DNA from: Planctomycetales bacterium
Lineage (GTDB): Bacteria > 4484-113 > JAFGCY01
Length of the DNA stretch: 32,000 nucleotides
Assembly: GCA_022646745.1 (NCBI GenBank)
Contig: CP060262.1
Coordinates: 2,010,001-2,042,000 of the forward strand
Direction of reading: 5' to 3'
Below the pieces are notes generated by a model. It searched no databases and was not told the origin of the DNA. It saw only the letters and a program-made list of their open reading frames with translations. A program made the position numbers and the translations under genes. Positions 3,693 through 23,972 of this stretch are shown piece by piece (positions within the stretch are counted from its first letter, which is position 1; every line of letters starts with the position of its first letter).

Positions 3693-3701
3693 TGAAAGGA
3701 G

Positions 3702-3721
3702 GTCCGGCCGCCGAGCCGGAC
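3702..3721 (+). terminator. Stem-loop just after the stop of the giant protein gene (GTCCGGC-cgccga-GCCGGAC), no U-tract
   Basis: A perfect 7-bp stem starts 10 nt after the stop codon. With no T-run after it, intrinsic-terminator status is weak. Confidence 0.3.
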
Positions 3722-3728
3722 AATGGAA

Positions 3729-3749
3729 CAGTGGTCAGTAGTCAGTAAG
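3729..3749. repeat. Degenerate heptamer tract CAGTGGT CAGTAGT CAGTAAG (GTGGTCA/TGACCAC family)
   Basis: Period-7 repeat read directly from the sequence. It is inverted relative to the tract at 3864-3891. Confidence 0.8.
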
Positions 3750-3787
3750 AGAAGCAGAATGAGAATGAGAAACAGAATCAGAAGCAG
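3750..3787. repeat. Degenerate hexamer tract (AGAAnn)x6: AGAAGC AGAATG AGAATG AGAAAC AGAATC AGAAGC
   Basis: Period-6 repeat read directly. A near-identical tract at 14140-14175 encodes, on the minus strand, the hydrophobic core of a lipoprotein signal peptide. Confidence 0.8.
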
Positions 3788-3863
3788 GTTGTCAGAAACT
3801 GGTAAAGAAGACAACTGACCGCTATCTGCGGCTTCTGTTTCTGCCAACTAATTCTCCTTCTGA

Positions 3864-3891
3864 CGACTGCCCACTGACCACTGACAACTAA
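3864..3891. repeat. Degenerate heptamer tract CGACTGC CCACTGA CCACTGA CAACTAA
   Basis: Period-7 repeat read directly. It is the reverse-complement family of the tract at 3729-3749. Confidence 0.75.
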
Positions 3892-3912
3892 AAAGCCCCG
3901 CCGGAGCGGGGC
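3890..3912 (-). terminator. Rho-independent terminator for the minus-strand dockerin lipoprotein gene
   Basis: The minus strand reads GCCCCGC-tccg-GCGGGGC followed by TTTTT. It lies about 155 nt downstream of the stop at 4067. Confidence 0.6.
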
Positions 3913-4066
3913 ACAAGCAGACTTCAGGCTACAGACCGCAGACTTCAGAAAGTGACGCCAGACCTACCGCTCTCCTTGAGATAGATCTGGCGTCTGGTGT
4001 CTGAATTCTGTACTCTGTTTGTCAGCTTTTCAGCTGACATCCGCCAGGCTTACAGCCTGGCCACCA

Positions 4067-5776
4067 CTAGTTCACATTGATCTCGACGATGTTGCTCACG
4101 CGCTTGGCGAGGTCGAAGATCGTCACGCTCTCGCCGGGGCTGAACTCCGCCACCACGCTCACCTGGTCGCCACTGGACAGGTCGGTCGTTGCCAGCGTGG
4201 CACTGCCGCTGTCGAAGCTGGACGTGCCGGCGTTGGCACCATCCGGGATCACCGCCCAGGCAGCCCAGTCGGTCAGGTCGACATCACGGGTGATGGTCTC
4301 CTGCACCGTGCCGCCGCCGTCGAGGATCTCCAGCTGGAACGTGCCCATCGCGCTGAACACCACGTCGTCACCGGCGTTCACGCTGATCGGTCCGGTGCCG
4401 CCGCCGCTCAGTTCGATGTTGATGTCCTCGATGCTCAGCAGCAGGAAGCTCACCTCGTCGAATTGCAGGTTGTTGCCCGGCGCATGTGCACGCACGGTCA
4501 CGAGCCCGCGGTTGCGGAAGCTAAGCTGGCCCTTCGTGCCGGCGCTGTCGCTGACGGCGGCGCTGTTGCCGCCGGTCGGAACGGTCCAGATCAGCTGCTC
4601 AGTGGCATCAAACGGGTTGCCCGGGTCGGCATCGCTCTCGGCGGTGGCCGTCAGGCCGAGCATCTCGGGGGCGAAGTCCTCGGCGTTGCCAAGCACCTCG
4701 TCAACGCTGGCCTCGGTGATGTACACGATCGAGCGGCTGCCATCCACCTCAAGTGTCGGGGAGGCCGGCAGGCTGATGTTCACGTTGCTCAGCACGGGGG
4801 CTGCGGTCACGGCCTGCAGGAACAGCACGTTCGTGCTGCGGCTGCCCAGCGCGCCCGCGTTGTCAAAGTACTGCACTGCGAAGAAGGTGTCCTCCTCCAG
4901 CACATCGCCGACCCAGTTCCAGGTCAGCAGGCCGTCGGTGGTCTTCGGGCTCGGGAACTCATCGGCGCGGTTGACACGCACAAGCTCCGTCAGGCTGCCC
5001 TCACTGGCGCCGCTCAGGATCGCGTAGCCGGCCAGCCCGGTGCCGAGGTTGATGCCCAGCGGGGTCAGGTCGGAGATGGTCACGCTGCCATTGCGGTCGT
5101 AGTCGGCCTTGTCCGCCTGGCTGCCGGGGGTCACGCCCGTCGTGTTGAGCGAGATGCCCAGCGGGGTCAGGTCGGACAGGGTCACGAGCCCGTTGTTGTC
5201 ACCGTCGCCGGAGTTGATCTCTGGCCAGCTGATTTCCGGCTGGCCGGTGTTCTCACTCACGCTGCCCGCGATCTCGAATGCATTCGCGGCACCGGTCGGG
5301 GCCTTGGCGATGCTGCGTGCCAGCTGCTCGCTGCCCTCGCTGAAGCTCACCCGCGCGATCGCCTGGCGGCCGTCCAGGCCGGGGCGCACATCGAAATTCG
5401 CCAGCACCATGCCGAAGTTCAATCCATCCTCCAGCGGCTTGGCGAGGAACAGGGTGTCATCGCCGCTGGCCGTAAGCTGGGCCGACTCGAAGCTGTACTG
5501 CGAGCGGTCATAGCTCACCACGCCGTAAAGCGCCTTGGTGTCCTGCATCCCGCTGGCCACGATGTCGAAGCTGTACTGTCCGGCCGGTCCCGCTGCGGGC
5601 ACAAGCTCCAGGCTGACCGAACCGGCCGCGATGCTGTTATCGCGGTCCAGGCTGGCCGAGAAATCGCTCCCGCCGGCGTTGCTTCCCGCCGTGCCGCCGC
5701 CGCAGGACGCAGCGAGGCTGAGGGTCATCAGGGCCAGCAGGCTGGCCAGCAGCTTAATGCTCTTCATAAAAGGCAT
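4067..5776 (-). CDS. Secreted lipoprotein with a cohesin-like module and two dockerin-type repeats
   Basis: The N-terminus MPFMKSIKLLASLLALMTLSLAASCGGG contains a lipobox (LAAS-C). Dockerin-like repeats GDGDNNGLVTLSDLTPLGISL and DYDRNGSVTISDLTPLGINL lie at about nt 5043-5212. The start could instead be the MKSIKLL Met at 5767. The 605-aa plus-strand ORF opposite is Arg/Ala/His-rich antisense noise. Confidence 0.85.
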   Translation of the reverse strand: MPFMKSIKLLASLLALMTLSLAASCGGGTAGSNAGGSDFSASLDRDNSIAAGSVSLELVPAAGPAGQYSFDIVASGMQDTKALYGVVSYDRSQYSFESAQLTASGDDTLFLAKPLEDGLNFGMVLANFDVRPGLDGRQAIARVSFSEGSEQLARSIAKAPTGAANAFEIAGSVSENTGQPEISWPEINSGDGDNNGLVTLSDLTPLGISLNTTGVTPGSQADKADYDRNGSVTISDLTPLGINLGTGLAGYAILSGASEGSLTELVRVNRADEFPSPKTTDGLLTWNWVGDVLEEDTFFAVQYFDNAGALGSRSTNVLFLQAVTAAPVLSNVNISLPASPTLEVDGSRSIVYITEASVDEVLGNAEDFAPEMLGLTATAESDADPGNPFDATEQLIWTVPTGGNSAAVSDSAGTKGQLSFRNRGLVTVRAHAPGNNLQFDEVSFLLLSIEDINIELSGGGTGPISVNAGDDVVFSAMGTFQLEILDGGGTVQETITRDVDLTDWAAWAVIPDGANAGTSSFDSGSATLATTDLSSGDQVSVVAEFSPGESVTIFDLAKRVSNIVEINVN

Positions 5777-5865
5777 CCTCGGAAACTCAGATTTGCGCGC
5801 CGGAACGCATCCGGCAGTGTGTCCGCCACCATTTAATTATATACCCGCAGGGGGCACTGCCGCCC

Positions 5866-7416: not shown

Positions 7417-7905
7417 ATGTTGCCATTGCAGCCAAAGCTGATGCGTAAGTCCGATCACAACTACCGTACTCCGGGCTACTACTTCATCACGCTGAAGACC
7501 GCTGGCTCACGGAACCTGTTTGGCAGGTATGAAAGTGGCAATGATGTAATCCTGTCACGCTTCGGAAGGATTGCCCTTGAGTGCTGGCACCGTAATGATG
7601 AGGTGTACCAGACCGTAAGCAATGATCTGTATCGCTTCATGCCCAATCACATGCACGCCTTGCTTATGCTGGAATTTGGCGAGAGCACACGGGATGCGGG
7701 AGTACACCTGAGCAAGGTCGTGACATCCTACAAGGGTGTTGTCACAAAGGAAATCCGCAGGTTGACGGGGAATGCGGATATGCAGGTCTGGCAACGGAAC
7801 TACTACGAACGGATAGTCACATCGGAAAGGGCCCTGCAGAACATCCGCAGCTACATTCTCTACAATCCGCTGATGATTGAACTGGAAGGCAAGGGTCTGC
7901 GCTGA
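7417..7905 (+). CDS. rayT: REP-associated tyrosine transposase (RAYT, IS200/IS605 TnpA-like Y1 HUH enzyme)
   Basis: The protein is 162 aa with an HUH motif MPNHMHALL (nt 7648-7656 = H-M-H). It has a C-terminal catalytic-Tyr region WQRNYYERIV and ends in the YILYNPL motif typical of this family. MRKSDHNY at 7441 is an alternative start. Confidence 0.85.
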   Translation: MLPLQPKLMRKSDHNYRTPGYYFITLKTAGSRNLFGRYESGNDVILSRFGRIALECWHRNDEVYQTVSNDLYRFMPNHMHALLMLEFGESTRDAGVHLSKVVTSYKGVVTKEIRRLTGNADMQVWQRNYYERIVTSERALQNIRSYILYNPLMIELEGKGLR

Positions 7906-9402: not shown

Positions 9403-9509
9403 CAGGGACCTGGGACCTGGGATCAGCAGGTAGCAGGTGCCTGGGTTCAGTAGGGATCAGGTCTCAGGGCGCTTGTATTCGATCCCTGGTCCCCGGTCCC
9501 CGGTACCTG
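9403..9509. repeat. Heptamer tracts of the GGGACCT/AGGTCCC family forming inverted arms
   Basis: The left arm is CAGGGAC CTGGGAC CTGGGAT CAGCAGG TAGCAGG and onward (9403-9470). The right arm is ATCCCTG GTCCCCG GTCCCCG GTACCTG (9482-9509). The arms are imperfect reverse complements. Confidence 0.8.
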
Positions 9510-9551
9510 ATTATAAGGTGCTGGGAGGGGGGAGGCAAGGGGGAAATAGAT

Positions 9552-9579
9552 TTGACAAATGATGTGCTACACTTAGCTT
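9552..9579 (+). promoter_or_regulatory. Candidate sigma70-type promoter for the island gene (TTGACA-N16-TAGCTT)
   Basis: TTGACA at 9552-9557 is a perfect -35 and TAGCTT at 9574-9579 is a weak -10. TATAAG at 9610-9615, 5 nt before the ATG, is an alternative -10. In AT-rich DNA such matches arise by chance. Confidence 0.3.
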
Positions 9580-9620
9580 TTCTCAGCTCGTTATGAATCC
9601 AAGATTACATATAAGATGCC

Positions 9621-12600
9621 ATGAAGTTAACTGATCTTTACACTTTCAATAAGTTTTCAATAAAAGAAGCTGGTCCAAAGTATAGTCCGGGTATAGCTGA
9701 AGGTGCGCCAAATATTGAGATAAACGAGCTTGTAGAATTCTTAGACGCACTCTGTCTAAATGAAAATTTTAAACTAGCATTTAAAACAATTAATAATGAA
9801 CTAACAAATATATCAATTTATCATAGTAGAATCGTAAATGGTCTGTTCTTAAATAACAAGCATACACCAGCAACACTATCTAAATCACTTAGTAAGGTAA
9901 TACAAAGCAGAACAACAGAAAATCTAGAAGCAGAATTATCTCACGCTAAGAGGGCATACACTTTCATATCTAGAAAAATTTCCAATAGACTAAAAGCGGT
10001 AAGGAAAATAGCAAGAGAAAGAGAGCCTAACAACACTAGAGACTCCGAGTATGAAAGATTACAATCGGAAATAAGTGCTTTGAGAGAATACTCCCTAGTT
10101 TCAAACAAACTCAAAGTGTTTTTCGCCGGTGACTATGAACAAGTCATTTTTGCTCAAAACCATATTCTCTTGACAGGAGAATGGGGAACTGGAAAAACTC
10201 ACTTCTTATGCGATATGGCCTTGCGGTATGAAAAGCTTGGGTTACCGGTGTTGCTAGTGTTAGCAAACAACCTAAAAACAGTTAATGATCCCTTTGCTGA
10301 AATTTCAAATCTAGTGAAGATAGAAAAAAATTCTTCAGCTTTCCTAAAGAATTTGAATAAGATTGCAAAGCAGAAGAAAGTTAGAGCCTTGATTTTGCTT
10401 GACGCAATAAATGAGAGCGATAGAAAATACTGGCATCGAAACATGAAATTTATCATCAATACTTTGAAGGCGTACAAAAATCTGCGCCTGGTAGTTTCTT
10501 GTAGAACTCCGTTTGAGGAGCAGATAATTAATCAAAGCACTCAAAGAAAGTTTACAAAGATTAATCATATGGGATTTCAAGATAATGAGTTCAACGCGCA
10601 GATTGAATTCTTCAAACACTATGAAATTCCTCTGTCCTTTGTGCCATTACTTGTTCCGGAGTTTACTAAACCACTTACATTGAAAATGTTGTGTGAAGAC
10701 CTGAAAGATTACTCTACACCTTGGCAAAAGAGAAAATTAAAAATTCTCATTTCAGGGCAGAGAGGAATGACTACAATTTTGGAGAATTATATTGTCAAGA
10801 AGGGTGGAGAAATAGAAAAGAAATTCAGTCTGCCTACAAAATCATGTTGGTTCTTTATTAAAGGAAAGGGCAGCAATTTGGATCTATGTATAGCTGCGAG
10901 GATGGCATCGCAGTCGAAGAGTTGGCTAAAAAGAGATGAAGTGCAACAAATTGCTCAGCAATTTTTTGCGTTCAATAACGATGAATCATCTGCATTTGTT
11001 GCATCACTAATTGAGGGGGGCATTCTAAAAGAAGAGCTCAAATGGGAACCGAATAAATTCGTTGAGGCAATAACGTTTCCATATCAAAGATTTGGTGATC
11101 ATATAATTGCTAGACATCTTATGAACAATTATTTGAATTTAGAATCAGATATTCATATCAGCAGAAGTTTTTATCGAAATCGAGTCTTAGGCAAATTGTT
11201 TTATAGTGAATTCAATAATTATAGTGTTTCAGAGCCAGGACTAATAACTGCAATAATGCTAGAATTACCTGAGAGATTAAAGAAAAGAAAAGGAAAGTCC
11301 GAGCTATTTGCGTTTTTGCCTAAGGACGTTTTGAGGAGAAAAAATGCATTACTAAATCAGTTATTTATAAGTGGTTTGTCTTGGAGAAGCACAGACGCGA
11401 TCACTGAAGAAACTGAAGATAAAATACATATTTTGTTGAAAACCGATGATACATACATAAAGAACTTATGCTTTACAACATTAGTTGGTTTGTGTTTAAG
11501 AGTTAATCACAAACTATCTTCTAAATGGTTGTGGGACTATCTTATTAATTTATCAATGCAAGATCGAGATCTACTATGGTCAGAATTCTTGAGAGATTAC
11601 CAGGGTGTTGAGTCTATAGAGCAGGTGTTTAGTTGGTGTGAAATTAAGAAACATGAATTTGACAAAGAAACTGTACTGCTATTAGTCAATGTCCTATCGC
11701 TGGTATTAACCAGCTCAAACCGACATTTAAGAGATGCTGCCACTAAACAAATCGTTTTGCTAGGCGATCATCAGCCTGAAGTGATTTTTGGTCATATTCT
11801 CAAGTGCATTGAAGTTGAGGATGTTTATATCAGCGAGCGCATGATTGCGGCTGGATATGGAATAGCCATGAGGTGGTGGGGAAAAGCTGATAACCAATCG
11901 CTACGCAAACAGATTTGCAATCTTGCAATCAGTATTGTAGATAGGGTTTTTAGTGACGATTGTGAAAAGAGTGTTTTGCATTCACTTGTATGTAGTTACT
12001 CACGTGGTTTGATAAACATTGCTGCTCAAATTGATCCTTCTTCATTAGAAATTCAAACTCGAGTAATTGATTCTCAAACAAATTCAACTCTATGCTCACC
12101 TTTCCCAAAGAGGAGTAGTATTAGAAATAATATCGAGGAAGTAGTAAGTGATGCAATTCGCATGGATTTTGCTAACTATACTCTTGGTAAACTTGTTCCA
12201 GATCGACGAAATTATGATTTTAGTGACAATAGGTATATTGGATTAAAAAAACAGATTGCCAAGAGGATGCGTGATTTAGGTTATGATCGAGAGATTTTTC
12301 AGTCAATAGATGATGAAATAGGGAGATTTCATACCGGGTACTATCAAGATGAAAAACCGTCTCGAATAGATCGATATGGAAAAAAGTATTCTTGGATTAC
12401 CTACTATGAAATGTTTGAAGTGCTTCATCGGCAGGATCGCTTAGGTTTAGATGAACTGCAATTAACAGATCTCGATATTGATCCGAGTTTTCCTGATGTG
12501 CCTATTTCTTGGATGCCTAAGTTGCAAGTGTATCGCGACGATGGTATTAAGAAAAAGAATGAATGGTTAGTGCGCGGCAAAAGTCCATTCCATACTAATT

Positions 12601-13334
12601 TGTTGTGCAAGCAAATTGTTGACAATTACAGGGGGCCTTGGATATTGTTAGATGCATTCATTGATTTGGATGGAGATGCTAAGCGAAATACAATTTCATT
12701 TATTAATACAATATTGGTTGGCAAGGAAAGTAGGGATACTGTAATTTGTGGATTGTTGAAGAGAGATTATTTGGGAAATGGTTCAATCACTGTAGATGAT
12801 GATGACCACTATGTTTTCGCAGGAGAGGTTCCTTGGTCCACCAAGTTTGCAAGTCATTTGCGTGATGCAAGTGGCGGTGCTATTAGAAAGACTAAAGAAT
12901 TACGTTTTGATCACAATGATCAAAACGTAATTCACGTTGATGTTCCAGTGCACTCGGTAAACTGGGAAGACTATCACAGTTCCGTTAGTACAGGTAGATC
13001 ATACACTACATTAGCCCCACATCTTTCTCAGCTTTTGGATCTCCATTCAGTCAAGGGATCTATAGATTTGTTTGATAGAAAAAATGATTTAGCAACAATC
13101 TATAGAGTGTTTAAATGTAGTGATGATGATTATTTTTATAATCATTTGCTATATGTCAGATCTGATTTGCTGTCGCGATATTTAAATGCAATCAACAGAA
13201 GTTTACTTTGGGTGGTTTGGGGTGAAAGAAGAGTACTTGATGATGATTCCAGATATAATCACTTGATTGCCGAAACATACAGAAGTAACTTGAACAATTT
13301 TTCCAGGTGCTATGAACTCTACTTTAGGTCATAA
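9621..13334 (+). CDS. Large STAND-class (NACHT-like) P-loop NTPase with uncharacterised N- and C-terminal regions
   Basis: This 1237-aa ORF is the only long ORF in the island. The Walker A is GEWGTGKT (nt 10176-10199) and the Walker B is RALILLDAINESD (10383-10421). A sensor-1-like motif LRLVVSCRTP (10482-10511) is followed by MGFQDNEFNAQIEFFKHY. A HEAT-like helical region includes NRHLRDAATKQIVLLGDHQPE. Codon usage is AT3-rich, unlike all neighbouring genes. Confidence 0.9.
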   Translation: MKLTDLYTFNKFSIKEAGPKYSPGIAEGAPNIEINELVEFLDALCLNENFKLAFKTINNELTNISIYHSRIVNGLFLNNKHTPATLSKSLSKVIQSRTTENLEAELSHAKRAYTFISRKISNRLKAVRKIAREREPNNTRDSEYERLQSEISALREYSLVSNKLKVFFAGDYEQVIFAQNHILLTGEWGTGKTHFLCDMALRYEKLGLPVLLVLANNLKTVNDPFAEISNLVKIEKNSSAFLKNLNKIAKQKKVRALILLDAINESDRKYWHRNMKFIINTLKAYKNLRLVVSCRTPFEEQIINQSTQRKFTKINHMGFQDNEFNAQIEFFKHYEIPLSFVPLLVPEFTKPLTLKMLCEDLKDYSTPWQKRKLKILISGQRGMTTILENYIVKKGGEIEKKFSLPTKSCWFFIKGKGSNLDLCIAARMASQSKSWLKRDEVQQIAQQFFAFNNDESSAFVASLIEGGILKEELKWEPNKFVEAITFPYQRFGDHIIARHLMNNYLNLESDIHISRSFYRNRVLGKLFYSEFNNYSVSEPGLITAIMLELPERLKKRKGKSELFAFLPKDVLRRKNALLNQLFISGLSWRSTDAITEETEDKIHILLKTDDTYIKNLCFTTLVGLCLRVNHKLSSKWLWDYLINLSMQDRDLLWSEFLRDYQGVESIEQVFSWCEIKKHEFDKETVLLLVNVLSLVLTSSNRHLRDAATKQIVLLGDHQPEVIFGHILKCIEVEDVYISERMIAAGYGIAMRWWGKADNQSLRKQICNLAISIVDRVFSDDCEKSVLHSLVCSYSRGLINIAAQIDPSSLEIQTRVIDSQTNSTLCSPFPKRSSIRNNIEEVVSDAIRMDFANYTLGKLVPDRRNYDFSDNRYIGLKKQIAKRMRDLGYDREIFQSIDDEIGRFHTGYYQDEKPSRIDRYGKKYSWITYYEMFEVLHRQDRLGLDELQLTDLDIDPSFPDVPISWMPKLQVYRDDGIKKKNEWLVRGKSPFHTNLLCKQIVDNYRGPWILLDAFIDLDGDAKRNTISFINTILVGKESRDTVICGLLKRDYLGNGSITVDDDDHYVFAGEVPWSTKFASHLRDASGGAIRKTKELRFDHNDQNVIHVDVPVHSVNWEDYHSSVSTGRSYTTLAPHLSQLLDLHSVKGSIDLFDRKNDLATIYRVFKCSDDDYFYNHLLYVRSDLLSRYLNAINRSLLWVVWGERRVLDDDSRYNHLIAETYRSNLNNFSRCYELYFRS

Positions 13335-13502
13335 GTGGTTTGGGTGGATTTGCAAATGTTTTATTTCTGTATAGGAAATAGTGTTTTACCTCAGCATGCA
13401 ATTCACAACTAGTCCTGTATATTTACAAGCAGCAATGACTTTTGTTCAAAATAGCACTGATAGTGAAAAATAGCATACTCAATCATTACTTTTATTAGCG
13501 TC

Positions 13503-14222
13503 TCACTCCCCACCGCCATTCGGCGGTTCAATCACCAGCACTGCGGCGCTTGTATTGAAGTCCTGGTAGCTGGCGCGGGCCACATACGTTCCCACCTCGT
13601 CGGGCAGCTGCCAGTTGATTTCAGTGCCGCTTTGCACCGTCAATGATATGACCGCATTGCCGCCACTGTCAAGCAGTGTGCCCGACTCAACCGTGACGCG
13701 GATATCCGGTGGCACAAGCGTGGTGGATGCCCCGCGCCAGGCCCCCGGCAGGGGAATCAGGTAGGGTGTGGCCGTGGCATGCGCTGTATCGGTCGGCGAC
13801 TGGACGTCGTTCGGCGACTGGACGTCGGTCGGCGGCAGGGGTGCCGCCGCTACACTGAGGTGTTCTCCACTGCACCCAGCAACCAGCAACCTGCAAGCAG
13901 TCGGCGACTGGAAGTCGCCGCTACAGTTCCCCGGTCCTAGATCCCTGCCTGCGGTCCCCGGTCCCTGGTCCCCGGTCCCTGCAACGCAGCTTGCAGCCGC
14001 CGATGTCGAGCTGGTCTGCGCGCGTGGGGTGATCGTCACGATGCTGCCGCGCACCGCCGTGGTTGGTGCTTCGAGGATGATGCCGGTCACCGTCACCGGG
14101 TTGGAGGATGCCCCGCCGCCACCGCATGAAGAAGCTGGCAGAAGCAGAAACAGAATGAGAAACAGAAGCAGCAGGGAGGTGAGACAGCGATGAGAGCCTT
14201 GTCTGTTGAGCTTGATGCGCAT
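13503..14222 (-). CDS. Small Ig-like (Big_2-like) lipoprotein interrupted in frame by a REP/short-repeat cluster
   Basis: The track ORF extends to 14282, but the likely start is MRIKLNRQGSHRCLTSLLLLFLILFLLLPASSCGGGG at 14222, with lipobox PASS-C. Beta-rich flanks are VTVTGIILEAPTTAVRGSIVTITPRA and IRVTVESG...GTYVARASYQDFNTSAAVLVIE. The middle ~65 codons (13793-13982) consist of repeat DNA. Confidence 0.6.
   Translation of the reverse strand: MRIKLNRQGSHRCLTSLLLLFLILFLLLPASSCGGGGASSNPVTVTGIILEAPTTAVRGSIVTITPRAQTSSTSAAASCVAGTGDQGPGTAGRDLGPGNCSGDFQSPTACRLLVAGCSGEHLSVAAAPLPPTDVQSPNDVQSPTDTAHATATPYLIPLPGAWRGASTTLVPPDIRVTVESGTLLDSGGNAVISLTVQSGTEINWQLPDEVGTYVARASYQDFNTSAAVLVIEPPNGGGE
13793..13982. 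repeat. Composite repeat cluster: 18-bp direct repeat x2, two GTAG-hairpin REPs (minus orientation) and a GGTCCCC-family heptamer tract
   Basis: TCGGCGACTGGACGTCG(T/G) occurs at 13793-13810 and 13811-13828. One REP, GGCGGCAGGGGTGCCGCCGCTAC, is at 13831-13853. A REP variant, GGCGACTGGAAGTCGCCGCTAC, is at 13903-13924. Heptamers occupy 13927-13982. Confidence 0.8.
14140..14175. repeat. Hexamer tract AGAAGC AGAAAC AGAATG AGAAAC AGAAGC AGCAGG, the second copy of the family seen at 3750-3787
   Basis: Read directly. Its reverse complement encodes LLLLFLILFLLL of the lipoprotein signal peptide. Confidence 0.8.
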
Positions 14223-14284
14223 GGAGGGATGATAACTCATCCAGGGTGCAGGTTGCTGGTTGCAGGGGGCAGGAAAAGTCACTT

Positions 14285-14476
14285 AGTCACTGAGTCAATT
14301 AGTCAATCACCTCCGTTGAGCTATGTTCGATGAGTTTGGTTGACTTATGGACTTATTGACTGAGAGTTCAAGAGTCAACAACTTACGTTTGCGATCAGCT
14401 AGAAGTGAGTGGTTGACTTCTTGACTTAGTGACTGATTGACTTAGTGACTGATTGACTTAGTGACTGCTTGACTGC
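14285..14476. repeat. Octamer/16-mer tracts of the AGTCA/TGACT family
   Basis: AGTCACTG AGTCAATT AGTCAATC lies at 14285-14308. TTGACTTAGTGACTGA occurs three times, plus TTGACTGC, at 14421-14476. Scattered TTGACT copies lie between these two tracts. Confidence 0.8.
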
Positions 14477-14480
14477 GCCC

Positions 14481-14571
14481 GGCGGCAAGGGTGCCGCCGC
14501 TACGCGCTCCGGATACCGAAACCGGAAACCCGAAACCGGAAACCGGTCGGCGGCAAGGGTGCCGCCGCTAC
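14481..14571 (-). repeat. BIME-like cluster: REP, then a CCGAAAC-family heptamer tract, then a second REP
   Basis: GGCGGCAAGGGTGCCGCCGCTAC occurs at 14481-14503 and again at 14549-14571. CCGGATA CCGAAAC CGGAAAC CCGAAAC CGGAAAC lies at 14509-14546. The second REP's CTAC provides the TAG stop of the radical SAM ORF. Confidence 0.8.
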
Positions 14572-16703
14572 GGAAGTTTGCTCGACGCGCCGCCGTCCAC
14601 TTCGCTTTCAGTTCCGCCCGTGCGCTGGATGTTGACAGCGGGCTTCACTCGCACGCCGCCGCTGCCAATCTCCAGTGGTGAGTCCGAGTGTTGTGCGACT
14701 TGCGCCGCACCTCCTTGTGCGACTTGCGCCGCACCTCCCCGATCAAGCTCCTCCGGGTAGACCGGTGAGAAGGGCCGCAGGCCGCGCTGTTCCGCGATGC
14801 CCTGGCGCGCCACCTCGGCGAAGTACTCCTTCAGTTCCTCCGGCACCACGCGGCTCTCCGGGTCGAACACCGGGGCCGCGCAGCCGATGCCGCAGCTGGT
14901 GCACTCCACATGGCAGGCCGGGTTGGCATCGCCGGAGTGGTAGTACTCCCACTCGCGCCACAGGTAGCGCTTGCCAACGCCGCGCGAGATGTGGTCCCAG
15001 GGGAGGGTGTCCGCATACTGCTTGTCCTCGTGCACCTCGCCCTCGAGGTCGAAGCCCCACTCGCTGCAGATGTCCTTCCAGACCGACAGCTCGAAGTTGT
15101 CAGACAAGAGCGTCTGCCCGCGCCGGAAGGCCTCCTCGATGATGCCGGCCACTTCGCGTCCGCCGCGTGACAGGAGCGTCTCCACCACGCCTTCCTCGGC
15201 GTCGTGGTACTTGAAGATGCACTGCCGGCCGTAGCGCTTCAGGAGGTCCAGCAGGCGCGCCTGCTTCTCGCGCGTGATCGCCGTGCGCTCCATGCCCTGC
15301 CACTGCAGCGGCGTATGCGGCTTCGGGATCAGCACCGAGCACGAGATTGTCAACCGTGGGCGGCGGTGCCCCTTCTCCTTCGCCATATCGAAGATCTTGC
15401 CAACCAGCTCGGCGATCTCATCCATCGCCTGCATCGGCTCGCCGGCGAAGCCCATCATGAAGTACAGCTTGAACTTGTGCCAGCCGGCCTGCATCAGCAG
15501 GTCGAATGTGTACAGCACATCCTCCTCGCTGACACCCTTGCGGATCGCACGCCGCGCGGCATCACTGCCGGCCTCGATGGCGATCGTGAGCGAGGTCTCG
15601 CGCGGGCGGCGCATCATCACGGACAGCTCCGCGCTCATGCGGTCAGCGCGCAGGCTGGGCAGGGCCACGCCGACGTCCTCGGGCAGCGCGGCCTTGACGC
15701 TCTCGACGAGCTGGTAGACCTGCGGGTGGTCCAGTGTTGACAGCGACATCAGCGCGACTTCATCCGCGCCGGTCTTGTTGATCAGCTCGACGGCGGCCTT
15801 CGTCAGGTCCTCCACGGTGCGTGCACGCGCCGGCCGCGTGATGTAGCCGGCCTGGCAGAAGCGGCAACCCTGCGGGCAGCCGCGCATCACCTCTAGGTAG
15901 ACCTTGTCGCTCGGGATCTCGATGAAGCTCTGCACCGGGTTGAGCGGCGGCATGCTCATCGCGAAGTCCTTCGCATAACCGCGCTTGACGCGCAGCGGCA
16001 TGCCATCGCGGCTGGGGCGGGTGCGCAGGTGTTTGCCCGCCTCGTCATATTCACATTCATAGAAGCGCGGCAGGTACACGCCCTCGATGTCGCGCAGGGC
16101 GTACAGGCGCTCCTCGCGCGGCAGGCCCTTCGTGGCCTTCAGGCTGTCGATGATCTCATCGAGGATGCTCTCGCCCTCGCCGTTGACAACCACGTCGAAG
16201 AAGGGCGCGATCGGCTCGGCGTTGCACATGCACTGCCCGCCGGCGATCACGATCGGGTCGTCGTCGCTGCGCTCGAGGCTGCGCAGCGGGATGCCGGCCA
16301 GGTCGAGCACCAGCAGGCCGGAGGGGTAGGCCATCTCGAAGGTGAAGGAGATGCCAATCGCGTCGAACTCACGCAGGCTGCGCTTGTTCTCAAGGCTCCA
16401 CAGGGCGACGCCCTTTTCTCGCATCATCTCCTGCATGTCGGGGCCGGGCACGAAGCTGCGCTCGCAGAGGCAGTCCTCGCGGCCGTTGATGTGCTGGTAG
16501 ATGATCTCCCGGCCGTGGTAGCTCATGCCGAGCTCGTAGAGGTCGGGAAAGACGTAGCAGAAGCGGAAGTCCACCGAGTCCCAGTCCTTGCGGATCTGGC
16601 CGAGCTCCTCGCCGATGTAGCGCGCGGGCTTCTGCACGAGGCGCAGGTCCGGGCGGATCAGGCGCTCGAAGTCGGACGGGGAGTGGTGTGTTGCATTCTG
16701 CAT
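14568..16703 (-). CDS. B12-binding-domain radical SAM protein of a widespread uncharacterised family (TIGR03960-like from memory)
   Basis: It carries a CPQGCRFCQAG (CxxxCxxC) cluster motif. The N-terminus reads VQKPARYIGEELGQIRKDW...FPDLYELGMSYHG...DDPIVIAGGQC..NGEGE, typical of that family. The last ~60 codons (14568 to about 14760) are encoded by repeat DNA and may not be ancestral. Confidence 0.88.
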   Translation of the reverse strand: MQNATHHSPSDFERLIRPDLRLVQKPARYIGEELGQIRKDWDSVDFRFCYVFPDLYELGMSYHGREIIYQHINGREDCLCERSFVPGPDMQEMMREKGVALWSLENKRSLREFDAIGISFTFEMAYPSGLLVLDLAGIPLRSLERSDDDPIVIAGGQCMCNAEPIAPFFDVVVNGEGESILDEIIDSLKATKGLPREERLYALRDIEGVYLPRFYECEYDEAGKHLRTRPSRDGMPLRVKRGYAKDFAMSMPPLNPVQSFIEIPSDKVYLEVMRGCPQGCRFCQAGYITRPARARTVEDLTKAAVELINKTGADEVALMSLSTLDHPQVYQLVESVKAALPEDVGVALPSLRADRMSAELSVMMRRPRETSLTIAIEAGSDAARRAIRKGVSEEDVLYTFDLLMQAGWHKFKLYFMMGFAGEPMQAMDEIAELVGKIFDMAKEKGHRRPRLTISCSVLIPKPHTPLQWQGMERTAITREKQARLLDLLKRYGRQCIFKYHDAEEGVVETLLSRGGREVAGIIEEAFRRGQTLLSDNFELSVWKDICSEWGFDLEGEVHEDKQYADTLPWDHISRGVGKRYLWREWEYYHSGDANPACHVECTSCGIGCAAPVFDPESRVVPEELKEYFAEVARQGIAEQRGLRPFSPVYPEELDRGGAAQVAQGGAAQVAQHSDSPLEIGSGGVRVKPAVNIQRTGGTESEVDGGASSKLP
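14691..14738. repeat. Perfect 24-bp tandem duplication TTGTGCGACTTGCGCCGCACCTCC x2 inside the 3' tail of the radical SAM ORF
   Basis: Read directly. It encodes GGAAQVAQ twice on the minus strand. Confidence 0.85.
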
Positions 16704-16712
16704 GGACTGGAC

Positions 16713-16718
16713 ATTCTA
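16713..16718 (-). promoter_or_regulatory. -10-like TAGAAT 9 nt upstream of the radical SAM ATG
   Basis: The minus strand reads TAGAAT-gtccagtcc-ATG. No SD is present, and the site lies just downstream of the terminator of the preceding gene. Confidence 0.4.
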
Positions 16719-16747
16719 ACGGATGCGCTGCCCATCGCAGAAAACGG

Positions 16748-16782
16748 AAACGGCGGGCAGCATCGCTGCGTACCCGCCGTTT
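16748..16782 (-). terminator. Rho-independent terminator after the small lipoprotein gene
   Basis: A 10-bp stem AAACGGCGGG/CCCGCCGTTT has a 15-nt loop. On the minus strand it is followed by the T-rich TTCCGTTTTCTG. Confidence 0.55.
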
Positions 16783-16803
16783 GGTGTGTCCATTGTCGTG
16801 TTG

Positions 16804-17172
16804 CTAGTCGCTCTCGGTCTGCATGTACGAACGCACGGCGTCGTTGGTGATCTTGATGCTCTGGTTCGTGTTGAAGGTATCCTCGCCGGCGATGCTCTTC
16901 TTGCACATCTCAAGCACTTCCTTGGCGCGGATGTAGGAACCCTTCTTGCCGAAGTCCTCCTCCCACTTGGTGAGCACGCCCTCCAGCTTGTCACAGTTGC
17001 GCTGCTCAATGGCGCCCTTGGTGTTGATGTCGTTCTCGATTGCGGCAAGCGATGACAGAAGCTCGGTCTTGTAGCGGCCGTGCCCGGAGGTGCCGGGGAT
17101 GGAGCAGCCGCTGATGTGGACGCCGAGCAGGAGCACCGCAAGCGCCAGAATGGACATTTTCATGATCTTCAT
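16804..17172 (-). CDS. Small helical lipoprotein, function unknown
   Basis: The likely start is MKIMKMSILALAVLLLGVHISGC (lipobox ISG-C), preceded by the SD AGGAGAGGAAGC. The longer track ORF (to 17253) adds an Arg-rich extension that overlaps the promoter region. Confidence 0.7.
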   Translation of the reverse strand: MKIMKMSILALAVLLLGVHISGCSIPGTSGHGRYKTELLSSLAAIENDINTKGAIEQRNCDKLEGVLTKWEEDFGKKGSYIRAKEVLEMCKKSIAGEDTFNTNQSIKITNDAVRSYMQTESD

Positions 17173-17203
17173 GCTTCCTCTCCTGGGTGGTAAAGACCGC
17201 AAG

Positions 17204-17232
17204 ATTGTAGCGGTTGAAATTGCCCTGCGCAA
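17204..17232 (-). promoter_or_regulatory. Candidate sigma70 promoter TTGCGC-N17-TACAAT for the small lipoprotein gene
   Basis: The hexamers and 17-nt spacer were read from the minus strand. The -10 lies about 32 nt upstream of the ATG. Confidence 0.4.
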
Positions 17233-17254
17233 ACCCCCCGCCGGACTTTGCACC

Positions 17255-17260
17255 TATAAT
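17255..17260 (+). promoter_or_regulatory. -10-like TATAAT 17 nt upstream of the thioesterase ATG
   Basis: TATAAT was read directly. I found no convincing -35 element. Confidence 0.35.
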
Positions 17261-17277
17261 CTGCGGCAGGCCAGGCT

Positions 17278-17769
17278 ATGGAAAGAACAAGGGAAATACG
17301 CAGGGCAGAGCCCCTGGAAACATTTGAAGTGGTCTTCCCGCAGGACCTCAACCCGATGAATACCATGTTCGGCGGTGCTGTCGTGGCACTGATGGACAAG
17401 GCGGCCGGGATCGTGGTCAGCCGCTGGGCGCGCCGCGTGGCGGTCACCGCCAGCATCGACGCGATCCAGTTCCTCACGCCACTGCGCCAGGGGCAGATGA
17501 TCGAGATCCACGCGCAGGTGGCCTACGTCGGCAAGTCGAGCTGCATGGCCCGGGTGCAGGTCTGGGGCAATGACATCGGCTCCGGCGACCGGCACTTCTG
17601 CTGCGAGGGCTTCTTCACGATGGTCAGCATGGACTCGAACTTCCGTCCGGTGGCGCTGCCGATGATCCCGGTGGAGACGGAGGAGGAGAAGCAGCTGTGG
17701 GACTACGCGCGGCATATCAAGCAGGCGATGCTGGAGCGCCGTGAGCAGGCCCGCCAGATGGCCGAGTAA
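17278..17769 (+). CDS. Acyl-CoA thioesterase, hotdog fold (YciA/BFIT-like)
   Basis: The sequence FPQDLNPMNTMFGGAVVALMDKAAGIVVSRWARRVAVTASIDAIQFLTPLRQGQMIEIHAQVAYVGKSS matches the hotdog thioesterase core pattern. Confidence 0.8.
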   Translation: MERTREIRRAEPLETFEVVFPQDLNPMNTMFGGAVVALMDKAAGIVVSRWARRVAVTASIDAIQFLTPLRQGQMIEIHAQVAYVGKSSCMARVQVWGNDIGSGDRHFCCEGFFTMVSMDSNFRPVALPMIPVETEEEKQLWDYARHIKQAMLERREQARQMAE

Positions 17770-17794
17770 CCCGGCCTGCATGGGGTCGTCCCTG

Positions 17795-17800
17795 TATAAT
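17795..17800 (+). promoter_or_regulatory. -10-like TATAAT 10 nt upstream of the operon's first ATG
   Basis: The sequence reads TATAAT-cggagcaggc-ATG. The spacer also contains GGAG, so a short SD-bearing leader is equally possible. Confidence 0.3.
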
Positions 17801-17810
17801 CGGAGCAGGC

Positions 17811-19202
17811 ATGAGCATTGAAGCCAGCAGCACGGGTGCAGCGCCGCAGCCGATGGGTGATACCGCCCCCGGCCGGGTGAGGCCGCGCAGCCGCGGCTAT
17901 GTGATTGGCTCCATCGTGGTGGTCAGCGTCTGCCTGCTGTGCATGCTGCTGTTCGCCTACCTGTTCAACCGCCCGCGGCCAGACAGCGGCACGCGCATCT
18001 GGCTCTTGAACCATACGCCGGACCAGGTGGTGATCTACAACCCGCATGACGGCGTGCCGGAGAAGAAGTTCCAGGTGGCGGATGGCCTGAGGGGCCTGAC
18101 ATTCTCGCGTGACGGCACCAGCGCCTACGTCTTCAACGTGGTGGACGTCGTCAACAAGTTCACGAAGATCGACACCGCGACCTACCTCAAGGAGGAGAGT
18201 GTCGAGGTGGACGGTGTGCCGCAGGGCATCGGCACCTTCCCGGACGACGCTGAAGTGGCGGTGATCACCGGCTCCAAGACCACCGGTGAGGCCGGCGGCT
18301 TCGACGTGCTGAGCATGACCGAGAAGAGTGCCGCCGACCCGGGCAAGCAGAAGCGCCTGTGGCGTGTGCGCGACCTGCAGATCACGCACAAGATCGCGGT
18401 CAGTGACGACGGCGGGCGGATCTACCTGCTGGATGCCAAGAGCGAGTACCTGACGATCTACGACTACCCGAACCAGAAGCAGCTCAGGCAGGTCAGCCTG
18501 CATGGTGCCGCCGAGCAGTTCCTCTACCCGAACACCGGTGACTACTACTACATCTCCGTGCTGCAGCACAATGCGATCTACCAGTTCCGCAAGTCTGACG
18601 ACGAGATCAACGCGGCCTACATCTACAGCTATGCCGACCCCGAGAAGAGCTACCACAACATCAAGCTGCGCTACATGGATGTTGACAGCGAGGGCAAGTA
18701 CCTGTTCGCCACCTGCTACGAGGCCAAGACGGTGGCGGTCTGGGAACTTGGCAACCCGGACTACATGCGCCAGTCCGATGAGGTGCGCCTGCCGGTCGGC
18801 CCGGACCAGAAGGGCTACCTGTGGGAGGGCCTGCCCTATTACATGCCGGCCTACCGCTTCGGCCTGAAGGGCGGCTATGAGGAACGCCTGAGCTACGTTC
18901 CGGGCGGCGAGCGCGTTGCAGTGGACCCGGCCGGCGCCTTCCTGACCATCAATGACGACGAAGGCGCGCTCTACATCTACTACCTGTATGACATCTACAA
19001 GGAAGTCAGCAAGCATGAGCCGATCCCGGACATTGCACCGCGCCTGCAGGACCTGCCGGTGATCGAGCCGCACAAGATCATCACGGACCTCGTGCGCAAG
19101 GGCGGCGGTGACGTGGAGATCCGCGACCTGAAGATCGCCATCCCGCGCGTGCGCAACCGCAGGGATGCCGCGGCCGCGGAGCAGGACGGTGTGATCGAGT
19201 AA
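17811..19202 (+). CDS. Membrane-anchored YVTN-type beta-propeller protein
   Basis: It has an N-terminal TM anchor (YVIGSIVVVSVCLLCMLLFAYLF). Repeated blade-like segments include DGTSAYVFN, DDGGRIYLLDAKSEYLTIYD, SEGKYLFATCYEAKTVAVWE and PAGAFLTINDDEGALYIY. Confidence 0.75.
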   Translation: MSIEASSTGAAPQPMGDTAPGRVRPRSRGYVIGSIVVVSVCLLCMLLFAYLFNRPRPDSGTRIWLLNHTPDQVVIYNPHDGVPEKKFQVADGLRGLTFSRDGTSAYVFNVVDVVNKFTKIDTATYLKEESVEVDGVPQGIGTFPDDAEVAVITGSKTTGEAGGFDVLSMTEKSAADPGKQKRLWRVRDLQITHKIAVSDDGGRIYLLDAKSEYLTIYDYPNQKQLRQVSLHGAAEQFLYPNTGDYYYISVLQHNAIYQFRKSDDEINAAYIYSYADPEKSYHNIKLRYMDVDSEGKYLFATCYEAKTVAVWELGNPDYMRQSDEVRLPVGPDQKGYLWEGLPYYMPAYRFGLKGGYEERLSYVPGGERVAVDPAGAFLTINDDEGALYIYYLYDIYKEVSKHEPIPDIAPRLQDLPVIEPHKIITDLVRKGGGDVEIRDLKIAIPRVRNRRDAAAAEQDGVIE

Positions 19203-23682: not shown

Positions 23683-23972
23683 GTAACTTCCGCGCGACCC
23701 CGCCTGCGGCGGGACTTCGCCTTCGACTCAGCCCGTAACTTCAACCCGACCCGGACACGCGAATGCGTTGCCGCAGGGTCAGACCCGCGAGTGCTTGCAC
23801 GAGCGGGTAGGAAATCATGTAACTTCAGCGCGATCCCGCCTGCGGCGGGACTTCGCCTTCGACTCAGCCCGTAACTTCAACCCGACCCGGACACGCGAAT
23901 GCGTGGCCGCAGGGTCAGACCCGCGAGTGCTTGCACGAGCGGGCACTAAACTTAAGTAACTTCCGCGCGACC
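23683..23972. repeat. 136-bp tandem repeat: two nearly identical copies plus the start of a third
   Basis: Copies start at 23683, 23819 and 23956. Copies 1 and 2 differ at 3 positions over about 124 bp and then diverge in the last ~12 nt. Each copy contains the hairpins CCCGCC-tgc-GGCGGG and CCCGC-ga-GTGC-tt-GCAC-ga-GCGGG. Confidence 0.85.

Follow-up and report, generated by a model that had tools for sequence, protein, structure and literature searches.

The locus raises the question of what a STAND NTPase could do without an effector domain. In all bacterial Avs and NLR-like proteins whose mechanism has been studied, sensing leads to oligomerization, to the action of a fused effector, and then to cell death. 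The gene analyzed here (Table 1) lies in a 32-kb stretch of Planctomycetales DNA, which is hereafter called the window. It belongs to a clade in which the sensor and the oligomerization motor are retained but the effector is absent. The best explanation of the findings as a whole, with a probability of roughly 0.55, is an effector-less Avs2 sensor which is carried as a hotspot cassette and whose output would be the capture of terminase. The reading frame is real and agrees with the original prediction in position and length; it begins with ATG on the forward strand. At the base composition of the island, a stop-free run of 1237 codons would have a probability of ~9e-44. The product is labeled "hypothetical protein" by NCBI (MCB1221794.1/UNM09990.1).

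Based on profile comparisons, the protein very probably belongs to the lineage of Avs2, the terminase-sensing STAND NTPase, and it aligns with Avs2 in collinear order over its whole length. The PADLOC Avs2 profile matches residues 13–859 at its positions 183–1000 of 1504 (E = 4.8e-158). The NCBIfam equivalog for Avs2, NF041813, gives 465 bits against a cutoff of 1000 bits. EcAvs2 of E. coli AVAST type 2 (PDB 9o4e; Evans et al. 2026, Nat Commun, PMC13601566) is matched with E = 1.2e-58 by the single sequence and with E = 5e-118 by the family profile. Residues 8–860 of the family profile align with 9o4e 170–989 (E = 6e-102) and residues 871–1209 with 1094–1447 (E = 2.5e-11), while a profile of the C-terminus only aligns with 1095–1449 (E = 6.6e-14). 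In the pairwise comparison with a Rhodothermus Avs2 annotated by NCBI, residue 13 corresponds to 175, and residues 875–1206 to 1147–1492 (E = 1e-7). The C-terminal ~400 aa, regarded as enigmatic in the original prediction, is the Avs2 sensor.

Over the collinear region (170–1447 of EcAvs2), where the identity is about 25%, both proteins contain the linker helix with the GGRYTP motif, the helical extension, the STAND NTPase, the TPR solenoid, and the beta-rich C-terminal sensor. They also have in common the motifs DFxxYxxG (D981), (D/E)R(Y/I)GKKYxWI, WE (E1362), and GE (E1444). The only parts of canonical Avs2 that are absent are the N-terminal effector of roughly 170 aa (in EcAvs2, about 169 aa whose N-terminus is amyloid-like) and a helical insert of 105–130 aa in the sensor, between the DFxxYxIG motif and HFDL (~105 aa at 990–1093 in EcAvs2). 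VcAvs2-trypsin/MBL and KpAvs2-Avap1/Avap2 share this core, in which a helical insertion in the NTPase is essential, and their TPR and CTD sense the ATPase domain of terminase. Their effectors are trypsin or an Mrr-like nuclease, and they have conserved operon partners, whereas the clade has neither. SeAvs3 (PDB 8dgc), which also senses terminase, is structurally similar to residues 561–1237 with a sequence identity of 13%; Avs3 has a much longer TPR and a Cap4-type nuclease effector, and lacks the helical insertion.

Table 1. Positions of the gene, its island and its protein domains in the window.
Feature	Position	Strand	Basis or remark
Avs2-like gene, intact ORF, 1237 aa	9621..13334	+	ATG start; STAND NTPase without effector domain
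Low-GC cassette with the Avs2-like gene as sole content	9545..13504		GC profile and sister-strain homology breaks
Motif A17-G18-x-(R/K)20-Y21-x-P23...A29-P30-N31	9669..9713	+	At least 90% conserved in 120 homologues
Helical bundle, residues 48–177	9762..10151	+	AF2; equivalent of the Avs2-specific helical extension/insertion between effector and NTPase
STAND NTPase module NBD-HD1-WHD, residues 178–560	10152..11300	+	Invariant residues, Foldseek, weak Pfam NACHT/AAA
Alpha-solenoid (ARM/TPR-like) arm, residues 561–937	11301..12431	+	AF2 pLDDT 89; Foldseek
Linker and beta-rich C-terminal sensor, residues 938–1237	12432..13331	+	Avs2 C-terminal sensor homology, AF2
Putative PD-(D/E)xK segment, a beta-hairpin (strands about 1003–1017 and 1022–1034)	12639..12719	+	AF2, conservation, EcAvs2 alignment

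The order of the domains is that of normal Avs2 (helical extension, NTPase, TPR, C-terminal sensor) minus the N-terminal effector. The N-terminal motif comes right after helix 3–17. It aligns with LGGRYTPELN just behind the effector of EcAvs2 (from residue 170), and its counterpart in the Rhodothermus Avs2 is AGPRYTP at 175. The Avs2-specific helical extension on the N-terminal side of the P-loop is present and is represented by residues 1–177, as seen in the alignment of profile residues 8–860 with EcAvs2 170–989 and in the AF2 bundle at 35–177. The AF2 model of residues 1–177 (pLDDT 91.5) places helices at 48–67, 69–75, 83–95, 99–133, 142–168, and 170–177. Residues 1–175 had been predicted to be helical, and the long helices 99–133 and 142–168 bear this out; the peptides quoted for this part, ENLEAELSHAKRAY (100–113) and SEYERLQSEISALRE (142–156), are located correctly. 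Within the clade, conservation is lowest in this bundle, with a mean identity to the query of 14% over residues 51–150.

In the NTPase module, Walker A (G186–T193) is at nt 10176–10199, and D261 of Walker B is within nt 10386–10415. GEWGTGKTH at 186–194, D261, and the sensor arginine R295 are invariant among 91–120 homologues. Foldseek matches the module to Cdc6/Orc1, NLRC4, and Avs4 with E of 6e-7 to 5e-5. The solenoid consists of about 19 helices over residues 568–937 in the AF2 model. The only significant Foldseek match of residues 561–1237 is the Avs3-terminase structure 8dgc (E = 3e-8, prob 1.0), and it is followed by designed ARM repeats, beta-catenin, and importin-alpha (E of 0.01–0.05, prob up to 0.96). 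The armadillo-repeat matches (E about 0.01) agree with the prediction of HEAT/ARM-like repeats in the middle of the protein, which had been based on NRHLRDAATKQIVLLGDHQPEVIFGHILKCIE at 700–731. Two conserved motifs, M848-D849-F-x-N-Y-T-x-G856 (nt 12162–12188) and D917-R-Y-G-K-K-Y-S-W-I-T927 (nt 12369–12401), are in the solenoid. In the model of the C-terminal part, helices continue to about residue 937, and the stretch from about 992 to 1232 is rich in beta-strands; to this extent the description of the C-terminal part as mixed alpha/beta was correct.

No effector domain was detected by Pfam, PADLOC, or NCBIfam, and at the locus in the window, no upstream coding capacity for an N-terminal effector was found. 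The lack of a recognizable effector, which had been proposed for this gene alone, is true of the whole clade. Of 120 close homologues, 118 have an N-terminal extension shorter than 20 aa, and at 66 genomic loci the maximal extension that the upstream sequence allows has a median of ~7 aa. The N-terminal offsets of 111 long representatives (50%-identity search) are bimodal, at either about 0–10 aa or 157–184 aa, and the short form accounts for 84 of them. One NJ bipartition unites 77 of the 84 short forms with one long form. As the homologues share the start point and form one clade, the gene is not a truncation.

The clade is coherent, consists of single genes, and is spread over bacteria and archaea; 289 relatives are seen among GTDB species genomes, archaea and CPR bacteria included. 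The core identity of the clade to canonical Avs2 is 20–33%. The gene is a complete member of this distinct and widespread Avs2 clade, in which the effector domain was either lost or never present. The protein looks functional, as there is no variation in Walker A, Walker B, R295, or the sensor motifs. Effector-less Avs2 forms may have been described already by Gao et al. 2022. PADLOC-type tools likely count the clade as ordinary Avs2, while NCBI lists the present protein as hypothetical, so that systems of two kinds with different functions may be pooled in censuses.

The sensor is strongly diverged from that of EcAvs2 (about 24% identity), and the sequence alignment suggests that the pocket contacting terminase is partly retained. 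D849 aligns with D981 of EcAvs2, and R918, K921, and K922 align with R1139, K1142, and K1143. E1116 (nt 12966–12968) aligns with E1362, and E1202 (nt 13224–13226) with E1444; they are conserved in 91% and 98% of 120 homologues, respectively. D981, E1362, and E1444 are the published terminase contacts of EcAvs2 (Evans et al. 2026, PMC13601566), and the published residue numbers agree with the indexing of the 9o4e sequence used here. R1130, R1132, and E1364, which bind the bridging ATP in EcAvs2, and the contact residue W1266 are not conserved, so that the trigger may be something else. On balance, a terminase-like phage protein is somewhat favored as the trigger.

The gene is a self-contained one-gene cassette that was acquired horizontally. 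The island is 3,960 bp in length with 35.7% GC and sharp edges, and the surrounding Planctomycetales DNA has 62.3% GC. In a sister strain, the homology ends at position 9544 of the window and restarts at 13505. Between the same junctions, the sister strain carries an unrelated 4,278-bp low-GC cassette of SIR2 (E = 1.7e-104) and HerA (E = 3.9e-140). Since SIR2-HerA occupies exactly the same site, the site behaves as a defence hotspot with variable cargo, here the island. Across more than 80 loci, the family has no conserved neighboring gene, and no Pfam family appears more than three times among 132 nearest-neighbor ORFs. Many RM, TIR, Mokosh, Dsr2, Gabija, and integrase genes are among the neighbors. 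A role in antiviral defence is likely, as judged from this context.

It can be speculated that the target of the solenoid and the C-terminal sensor pocket is the ATPase domain of a phage large terminase, or else a phage ASCE ATPase that resembles it. The binding would lift autoinhibition, and the ATP-bound NTPase would form a tetramer as in EcAvs2 and VcAvs2. The terminase might then be locked in inert 4:4 complexes with its ATPase site occluded, so that genome packaging would be blocked and the cell would not be killed. Direct neutralization is favored as the output because neither an effector domain nor a conserved partner gene is present. EcAvs2 buries the ATPase site of terminase beneath the bridging ATP and partly unfolds its nuclease domain (Evans et al. 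2026, PMC13601566), which makes sequestration plausible. In every characterized Avs, however, inactivation of the effector abolishes defence, so an effector-free output is without precedent, and stoichiometric capture would need a sufficient protein level. Sequestration of terminase as the output is therefore proposed only tentatively. That the clade confers immunity by itself, with the sensor as the weapon that locks terminase into ATP-bridged tetramers in a non-abortive and stoichiometric manner, is possible but doubtful. If it does, protection by a STAND sensor need not involve programmed cell death. Such an output would resemble, in function only, the non-killing defences that directly disable a component of phage assembly or packaging, which are neither STAND NTPases nor homologous.

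The alternative that survives best is a sensor whose effector acts in trans, which is possible although rather unlikely. Here, abortive infection would be carried out by an unlinked effector of the host or a mobile element, for example a nuclease, a protease-activated toxin, or a housekeeping factor, once the tetramer has recruited and activated it. The recruiting surface would be either the N-terminal helices, clustered in the tetramer, or the helical bundle 48–177, which is variable. The bundle of KpAvs2 is bound by the accessory protein Avap2, which is required for defence (Bechon et al. 2024, PMC11564622), and VcAvs2-trypsin works via a separate MBL nuclease (Guo et al. 2026, bioRxiv 10.64898/2026.08.25.746987). 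Thus, the output of Avs2 can use separate proteins and its helical bundle can dock a partner, and a partner in trans fits because this bundle is the docking site of Avap2. The low conservation of the bundle is expected of a lineage-specific interface, and the need for an effector in all characterized Avs also favors this possibility. However, the absence of a conserved neighbor over the loci compared, the single gene in the island, and the lack of a detectable adaptor or EAD-like domain stand against it. Moreover, a need for one particular unlinked partner is difficult to square with a cassette that travels by itself from phylum to phylum and between domains. If a partner is needed after all, the clade provides a handle for discovering unlinked effectors.

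It is improbable that the protein is a sensor-only or regulatory paralogue which assembles with a second Avs2 of its cell, one that carries an effector. Such a paralogue would broaden the range of triggers, like plant sensor/helper NLR pairs, or damp the response in a dominant-negative manner. The oligomerization module of the NTPase is homologous to that of canonical Avs2, and Avs2 tetramers assemble via their NTPase domains (Evans et al. 2026, PMC13601566; Guo et al. 2026). However, the low core identity makes mixed tetramers unlikely, no second Avs2 was found in the window or beside the relatives, and the hotspot slot is interchangeable with a complete SIR2-HerA system.

A decaying remnant, that is, a 5'-truncated Avs2 pseudogene without function, is still less probable. 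The domain required by all studied Avs is missing, and in a near-identical metagenomic contig (L001), the frame is shifted by a 1-bp deletion at position 13037 of the window. Nevertheless, the ORF is intact with the same start and end points as in more than 100 homologues, the catalytic and sensor residues are invariant in bacteria and archaea, and the clade is coherent. The differences of L001 are three 1-bp deletions adjoining homopolymer runs, and they look like assembly errors.

The original prediction had considered a cryptic PD-(D/E)xK-like nuclease effector in the C-terminal ~400 aa, with the repeats as the sensor and the domain order inverted, and this is the least probable possibility. 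The region is Asp/Tyr-rich and D1011 shows moderate conservation (Asp in 85 of 120 homologues), but only 10 of the 120 have Asp at D1019 and only 8 have Lys at K1021, and such a lack of conservation had been named in the original prediction as grounds for refuting the idea. In addition, the region is homologous to the non-catalytic C-terminal sensor of EcAvs2 (E = 6.6e-14), and its conserved residues are common to canonical Avs2 sensors. With residues 561–1237 as one query, Foldseek gives Avs3 and ARM repeats only and no nuclease among PDB matches. Asp (11.6% versus 4.2%) and Tyr (6.3% versus 2.9%) are enriched in the C-terminal part as had been noted, and Trp only slightly (2.0% versus 1.5%). 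The proposed segment WILLDAFIDLDGDAKRNTISFINTILV is indeed at residues 1007–1033, with D1011, D1019, and K1021 as numbered. A restriction-endonuclease-like alpha/beta fold was rejected for the C-terminus, because the segment is a hairpin inside the beta-rich sensor domain. D1019 and K1021 sit in the variable loop of this hairpin, the counterpart of the EcAvs2 loop that contains the terminase contact W1266.

The island is 3,960 bp long (window 9545–13504) with sharp edges, and has a GC content of 35.7% versus 62.3% in its surroundings. At this base composition, the chance of 1237 codons without a stop is ~9e-44. The product, encoded in a Planctomycetales MAG, is named hypothetical at NCBI. Each peptide quoted in the original prediction is found in the ORF at the position given for it. 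The last 398 aa contain 11.6% Asp and 6.3% Tyr, in agreement with the described Asp/Tyr-richness of the C-terminal region. The observation is confirmed, and the interpretation placed on it is supported in part.

Based on sequence comparison, the protein (the query) is a descendant of the Avs2 lineage and would work like it. PADLOC Avs2 models recognize it with E=4.8e-158, and the alignment begins at profile position 183 of 1504. The NCBIfam Avs2 model matches residues 14–840 with 465 bits, below its 1000-bit cutoff; the query thus passes the PADLOC models and fails both the NCBI equivalog threshold and the tripartite architecture, which includes an effector. A profile of 91 homologues aligns with EcAvs2 (PDB 9o4e, 1484 aa) in two pieces of the same order: residues 8–860 with 170–989 (E 6e-102) and residues 871–1209 with 1094–1447 (E 2.5e-11). 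The profile from the C-terminal 403 aa only also finds EcAvs2 1095–1449 (E=6.6e-14). Such a family profile is required, as single-sequence phmmer with residues 840–1237 finds no match in PDB. In the pairwise alignment with a Rhodothermus plasmid protein that NCBI annotates as Avs2, query residue 13 corresponds to 175, and 875–1206 to 1147–1492. The identification of 9o4e as EcAvs2 is secure because its residue indexing recovers the published K348, D981, T1128, R1130, R1132, W1266, E1362, E1364, and E1444.

In the cryo-EM structures of Avs2, the order is effector, helical extension, NBD-HD1-WHD, TPR, and beta-rich C-terminal sensor. The helical extension is inserted into the NTPase as an essential alpha-helical segment, and it clamps the terminase ATPase domain jointly with the TPR and the C-terminal sensor (PMC13601566; 10.64898/2026.08.25.746987). 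Given this architecture and the collinearity with Avs2, the three regions that seemed puzzling map onto parts of Avs2. The C-terminus, once called enigmatic, is a homologue of the Avs2 C-terminal sensor. The suggested inversion of the domain order is rejected, as only the effector is missing from the collinear arrangement.

Features of the Avs2-like gene, its product and a nearby gene
Feature	Location	Strand	Remarks
Avs2-like ORF	9621–13334	+	Single long ORF of the island; ATG start; 1237 aa
Helical extension and linker motif	residues 1–177		
TPR/ARM-like solenoid	residues ~600–800		
Distal solenoid and C-terminal sensor	residues ~840–1237		
B12-binding radical SAM gene	14568–16703	-	TIGR03960; two genes from the Avs2-like gene

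The predicted structures agree with this assignment. The model of residues 561–1237, built with a 91-sequence alignment (pLDDT 89, pTM 0.91), has ~19 helices ahead of a beta-rich domain; the helices run to residue 937, and the domain spans ~992–1232. The middle region, predicted to be HEAT/ARM-like, is indeed modelled as a helical solenoid, and armadillo-repeat proteins are among its Foldseek matches (E about 0.01). The two significant Foldseek matches of this model in PDB are both terminase-bound SeAvs3 (E 3e-8); the PDB set ends at 2026-04-08 and does not include 9o4e, and Avs3 (8dgc) is the best proxy for EcAvs2. The model of residues 1–620 (pLDDT 91.5) starts with a helix at 3–17 and a loop with the conserved motif AGx(R/K)YxP...APN. 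Next comes a helical bundle, in which helices 99–133 and 142–168 are long, and then an NTPase similar to those of Cdc6, NLRC4, and Avs4 by Foldseek.

The absence of an effector domain, as originally described, is seen throughout the clade of the query. Pfam finds only sub-threshold P-loop/NACHT matches in the whole protein. The best 120 homologues (32–37% identity, 97–100% coverage) are 1230–1260 aa long; none is extended at the C-terminus, and in 118 the N-terminus is extended by <20 aa. At 66 genomic loci, the reading frame could be prolonged upstream by ~7 aa at most (median). When 1.84 billion cluster representatives were scanned exhaustively by HMMER, 2,945 relatives were detected at E <= 0.001, and 1,284 at E <= 1e-30. 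Among 111 long relatives within the top 150, N-terminal offsets have two modes: ~0–10 aa for the majority of 84 short forms (defined by an offset below 60 aa), and 157–184 aa in 24. In a rough unrooted NJ distance tree, read by bipartition as midpoint rooting gives a misleading MRCA, the query falls within a single bipartition that unites 77 of the 84 short forms with only one long form. These facts indicate that the lack of an effector characterizes the clade and is no accident. Pfam names no N-terminal domain in six effector-bearing relatives or in the N-terminal 204 aa of two proteins annotated as Avs2.

Relatives are present in 289 GTDB species genomes, including those of Halorubrum, Natrialba, Saccharibacteria, Actinomycetota, Acidobacteriota, Pseudomonadota, Bacteroidia, Spirochaetia, Nitrospira, and Methylacidiphilum. 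What deserves attention is different from the original proposal: an Avs2 clade that is conserved and mobile, with no effector to account for its presumed protection. The Avs article texts do not describe Avs2 forms without an effector. The survey by Gao et al. 2022, reportedly of Avs N-terminal domains, is outside this literature, and therefore an earlier mention of the clade is possible.

A few clade members (P0207 of 1355 aa, P0172, and L022) have N-terminal extensions of 55–105 aa without a Pfam match, which could reflect wrongly called starts or the acquisition of small N-terminal modules. An unannotated Avs2-like frame on the Halobacterium sp. DL1 plasmid (CP007061.1, locus 3001–5784; 27% identity to query 14–957) lies between IS4 and ISH8 transposase genes without the C-terminal sensor, and looks like an IS-disrupted relative. 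The phage collection contains no clade member. Its sole match, a hypothetical protein of Staphylococcus phage UPMK_1 (MG543995.1, 103345–104853), resembles query 488–997 (WHD and solenoid; 24% identity, E=9e-14) and may be a piece of an Avs2-like sensor carried by the phage.

The EcAvs2 interface is partly conserved in the query. D981, E1362, and E1444 of EcAvs2 correspond to D849 (99% conserved), E1116 (91%), and E1202 (98%), and R1139/K1142/K1143 correspond to the invariant R918/K921/K922. In contrast, conservation does not extend to the bridging-ATP residues R1130, R1132, and E1364, and the clade lacks the 105–130-aa insert that follows the DFxxYxIG motif in canonical Avs2. These two differences are caveats on a terminase trigger. 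Binding of the phage terminase ATPase domain, or of a look-alike ASCE ATPase, would probably be the trigger, and ATP-dependent tetramerization would be next. The favored output would be direct neutralization of the terminase, with a probability of roughly 0.3–0.35. In EcAvs2, the bridging ATP already occludes the terminase active site upon binding, and the nuclease domain is partly unfolded (PMC13601566).

The main rival, nearly as likely, is that an unlinked effector or host factor is recruited, possibly through the helical bundle, which docks the accessory protein Avap2 in KpAvs2 (PMC11564622). A conserved neighbor or partner gene was sought across >80 loci, and none was found. Among 132 nearest-neighbor ORFs, each Pfam family occurs at most three times. 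Genes for restriction-modification, TIR, helicase, and integrase proteins are the most frequent of these nearest neighbors, and there are Mokosh, Dsr2, Gabija, pAgo-TIR, and SAVED systems as well.

Less likely are co-assembly with an effector-bearing Avs2 and a cryptic C-terminal nuclease. The putative PD-(D/E)xK site of the original prediction does not stand: among 120 homologues, Asp is present at D1011 in 85, at D1019 in only 10, and Lys at K1021 in 8. Segment 1007–1033 is modelled as a beta-hairpin with D1019 and K1021 in its variable loop, and the Foldseek matches of residues 561–1237 in PDB include no nuclease. This loop aligns to the EcAvs2 loop bearing W1266, a terminase contact (PMC13601566). 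A variable target-contact loop fits the conservation pattern of D1019 and K1021 better than a catalytic site. Among what is conserved in the region are DRYGKKYSWI, DIDPSFP, GE(I/V)PWS, W1115-E1116, and G1201-E1202-R1203, and most core residues of these motifs are also seen in canonical Avs2 sensors. Pseudogene decay is likewise less likely: no variation is seen among homologues in Walker A, Walker B, R295, and many residues of the sensor, and the protein is therefore under selection and not a remnant.

The neighbors of the query are housekeeping genes (Kdo transferase, ECF sigma factor, and TIGR03960 radical SAM protein). In a sister strain (ENA ERZ28655706 scaffold_13), the flanks are 93–96% identical to the window; homology stops at 9544 and restarts at 13505, placing the junctions at 9544/9545 and 13504/13505. 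Between them is an unrelated low-GC cassette of 4,278 bp (~13617–17894 of the scaffold), encoding SIR2 (PADLOC E 1.7e-104) and HerA (E 3.9e-140). Since SIR2-HerA occupies identical junctions, the site between the ECF sigma-factor gene and ORF 13503–14282 looks like a defense hotspot, where the one-gene Avs2-like cassette appears interchangeable with a complete two-gene system. A third relative (L100) is too diverged for this comparison.

The radical SAM gene would score as 'Avap1' by the loose KpAvs2 criterion, radical SAM within two genes (PMC11564622). It was rejected as an Avap1-like partner: it is a housekeeping gene and does not recur beside the clade. Its proximity looks coincidental, because it lies in host-GC DNA and is kept in the SIR2-HerA strain.

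Repeats are seen in and around the island. A 23-nt sequence (GGCGCTTGTATT...) is directly repeated ~40–55 nt outside each edge (9468–9490 and 13545–13567). This repeat is imperfect, with 12 nt exact and 83% agreement overall, and could be an insertion-site signature or chance. The host-GC flanks are dense in short G+C-rich repeats (9480–9509, 13792–13981, and 14316–14571): CCCCGGTCCC(T/C)GG runs, palindromic units of GGCGGCA(A/G)GGGTGCCGCCGCTAC, and TTGACTTAGTGACTGA tandems. An ORF 1.6 kb upstream (7417–7905), annotated 'transposase' and found on 14 contigs, encodes an IS200-like Y1 transposase (Pfam Y1_Tnp), and together with the flank repeats may constitute a REP/RAYT-type system. The C-terminal sensor CDS contains a 17-bp inverted repeat (GAATTACGTTTTGATCA/TGATCAAAACGTAATTC; 12897–12933) that is perfect and has a loop of 3 nt; a T-rich tail follows it on the minus strand.

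A metagenomic contig (L001, Logan SRR17907852) is 99.93% identical, with three 1-base deletions at 9527, 9582, and 13037, all adjoining short homopolymer runs. The last one frameshifts the Avs2-like gene, leaving an 1147-aa product (P0001); it is probably an assembly error, and could be a real inactivated allele. At about 23683–23957, sister-strain segments of ~80–104 bp match at least three staggered positions (23683–23785, 23735–23814, 23818–23921, and 23871–23957), which suggests that a unit of ~136 bp is repeated in tandem, perhaps at a higher copy number in the query's strain.
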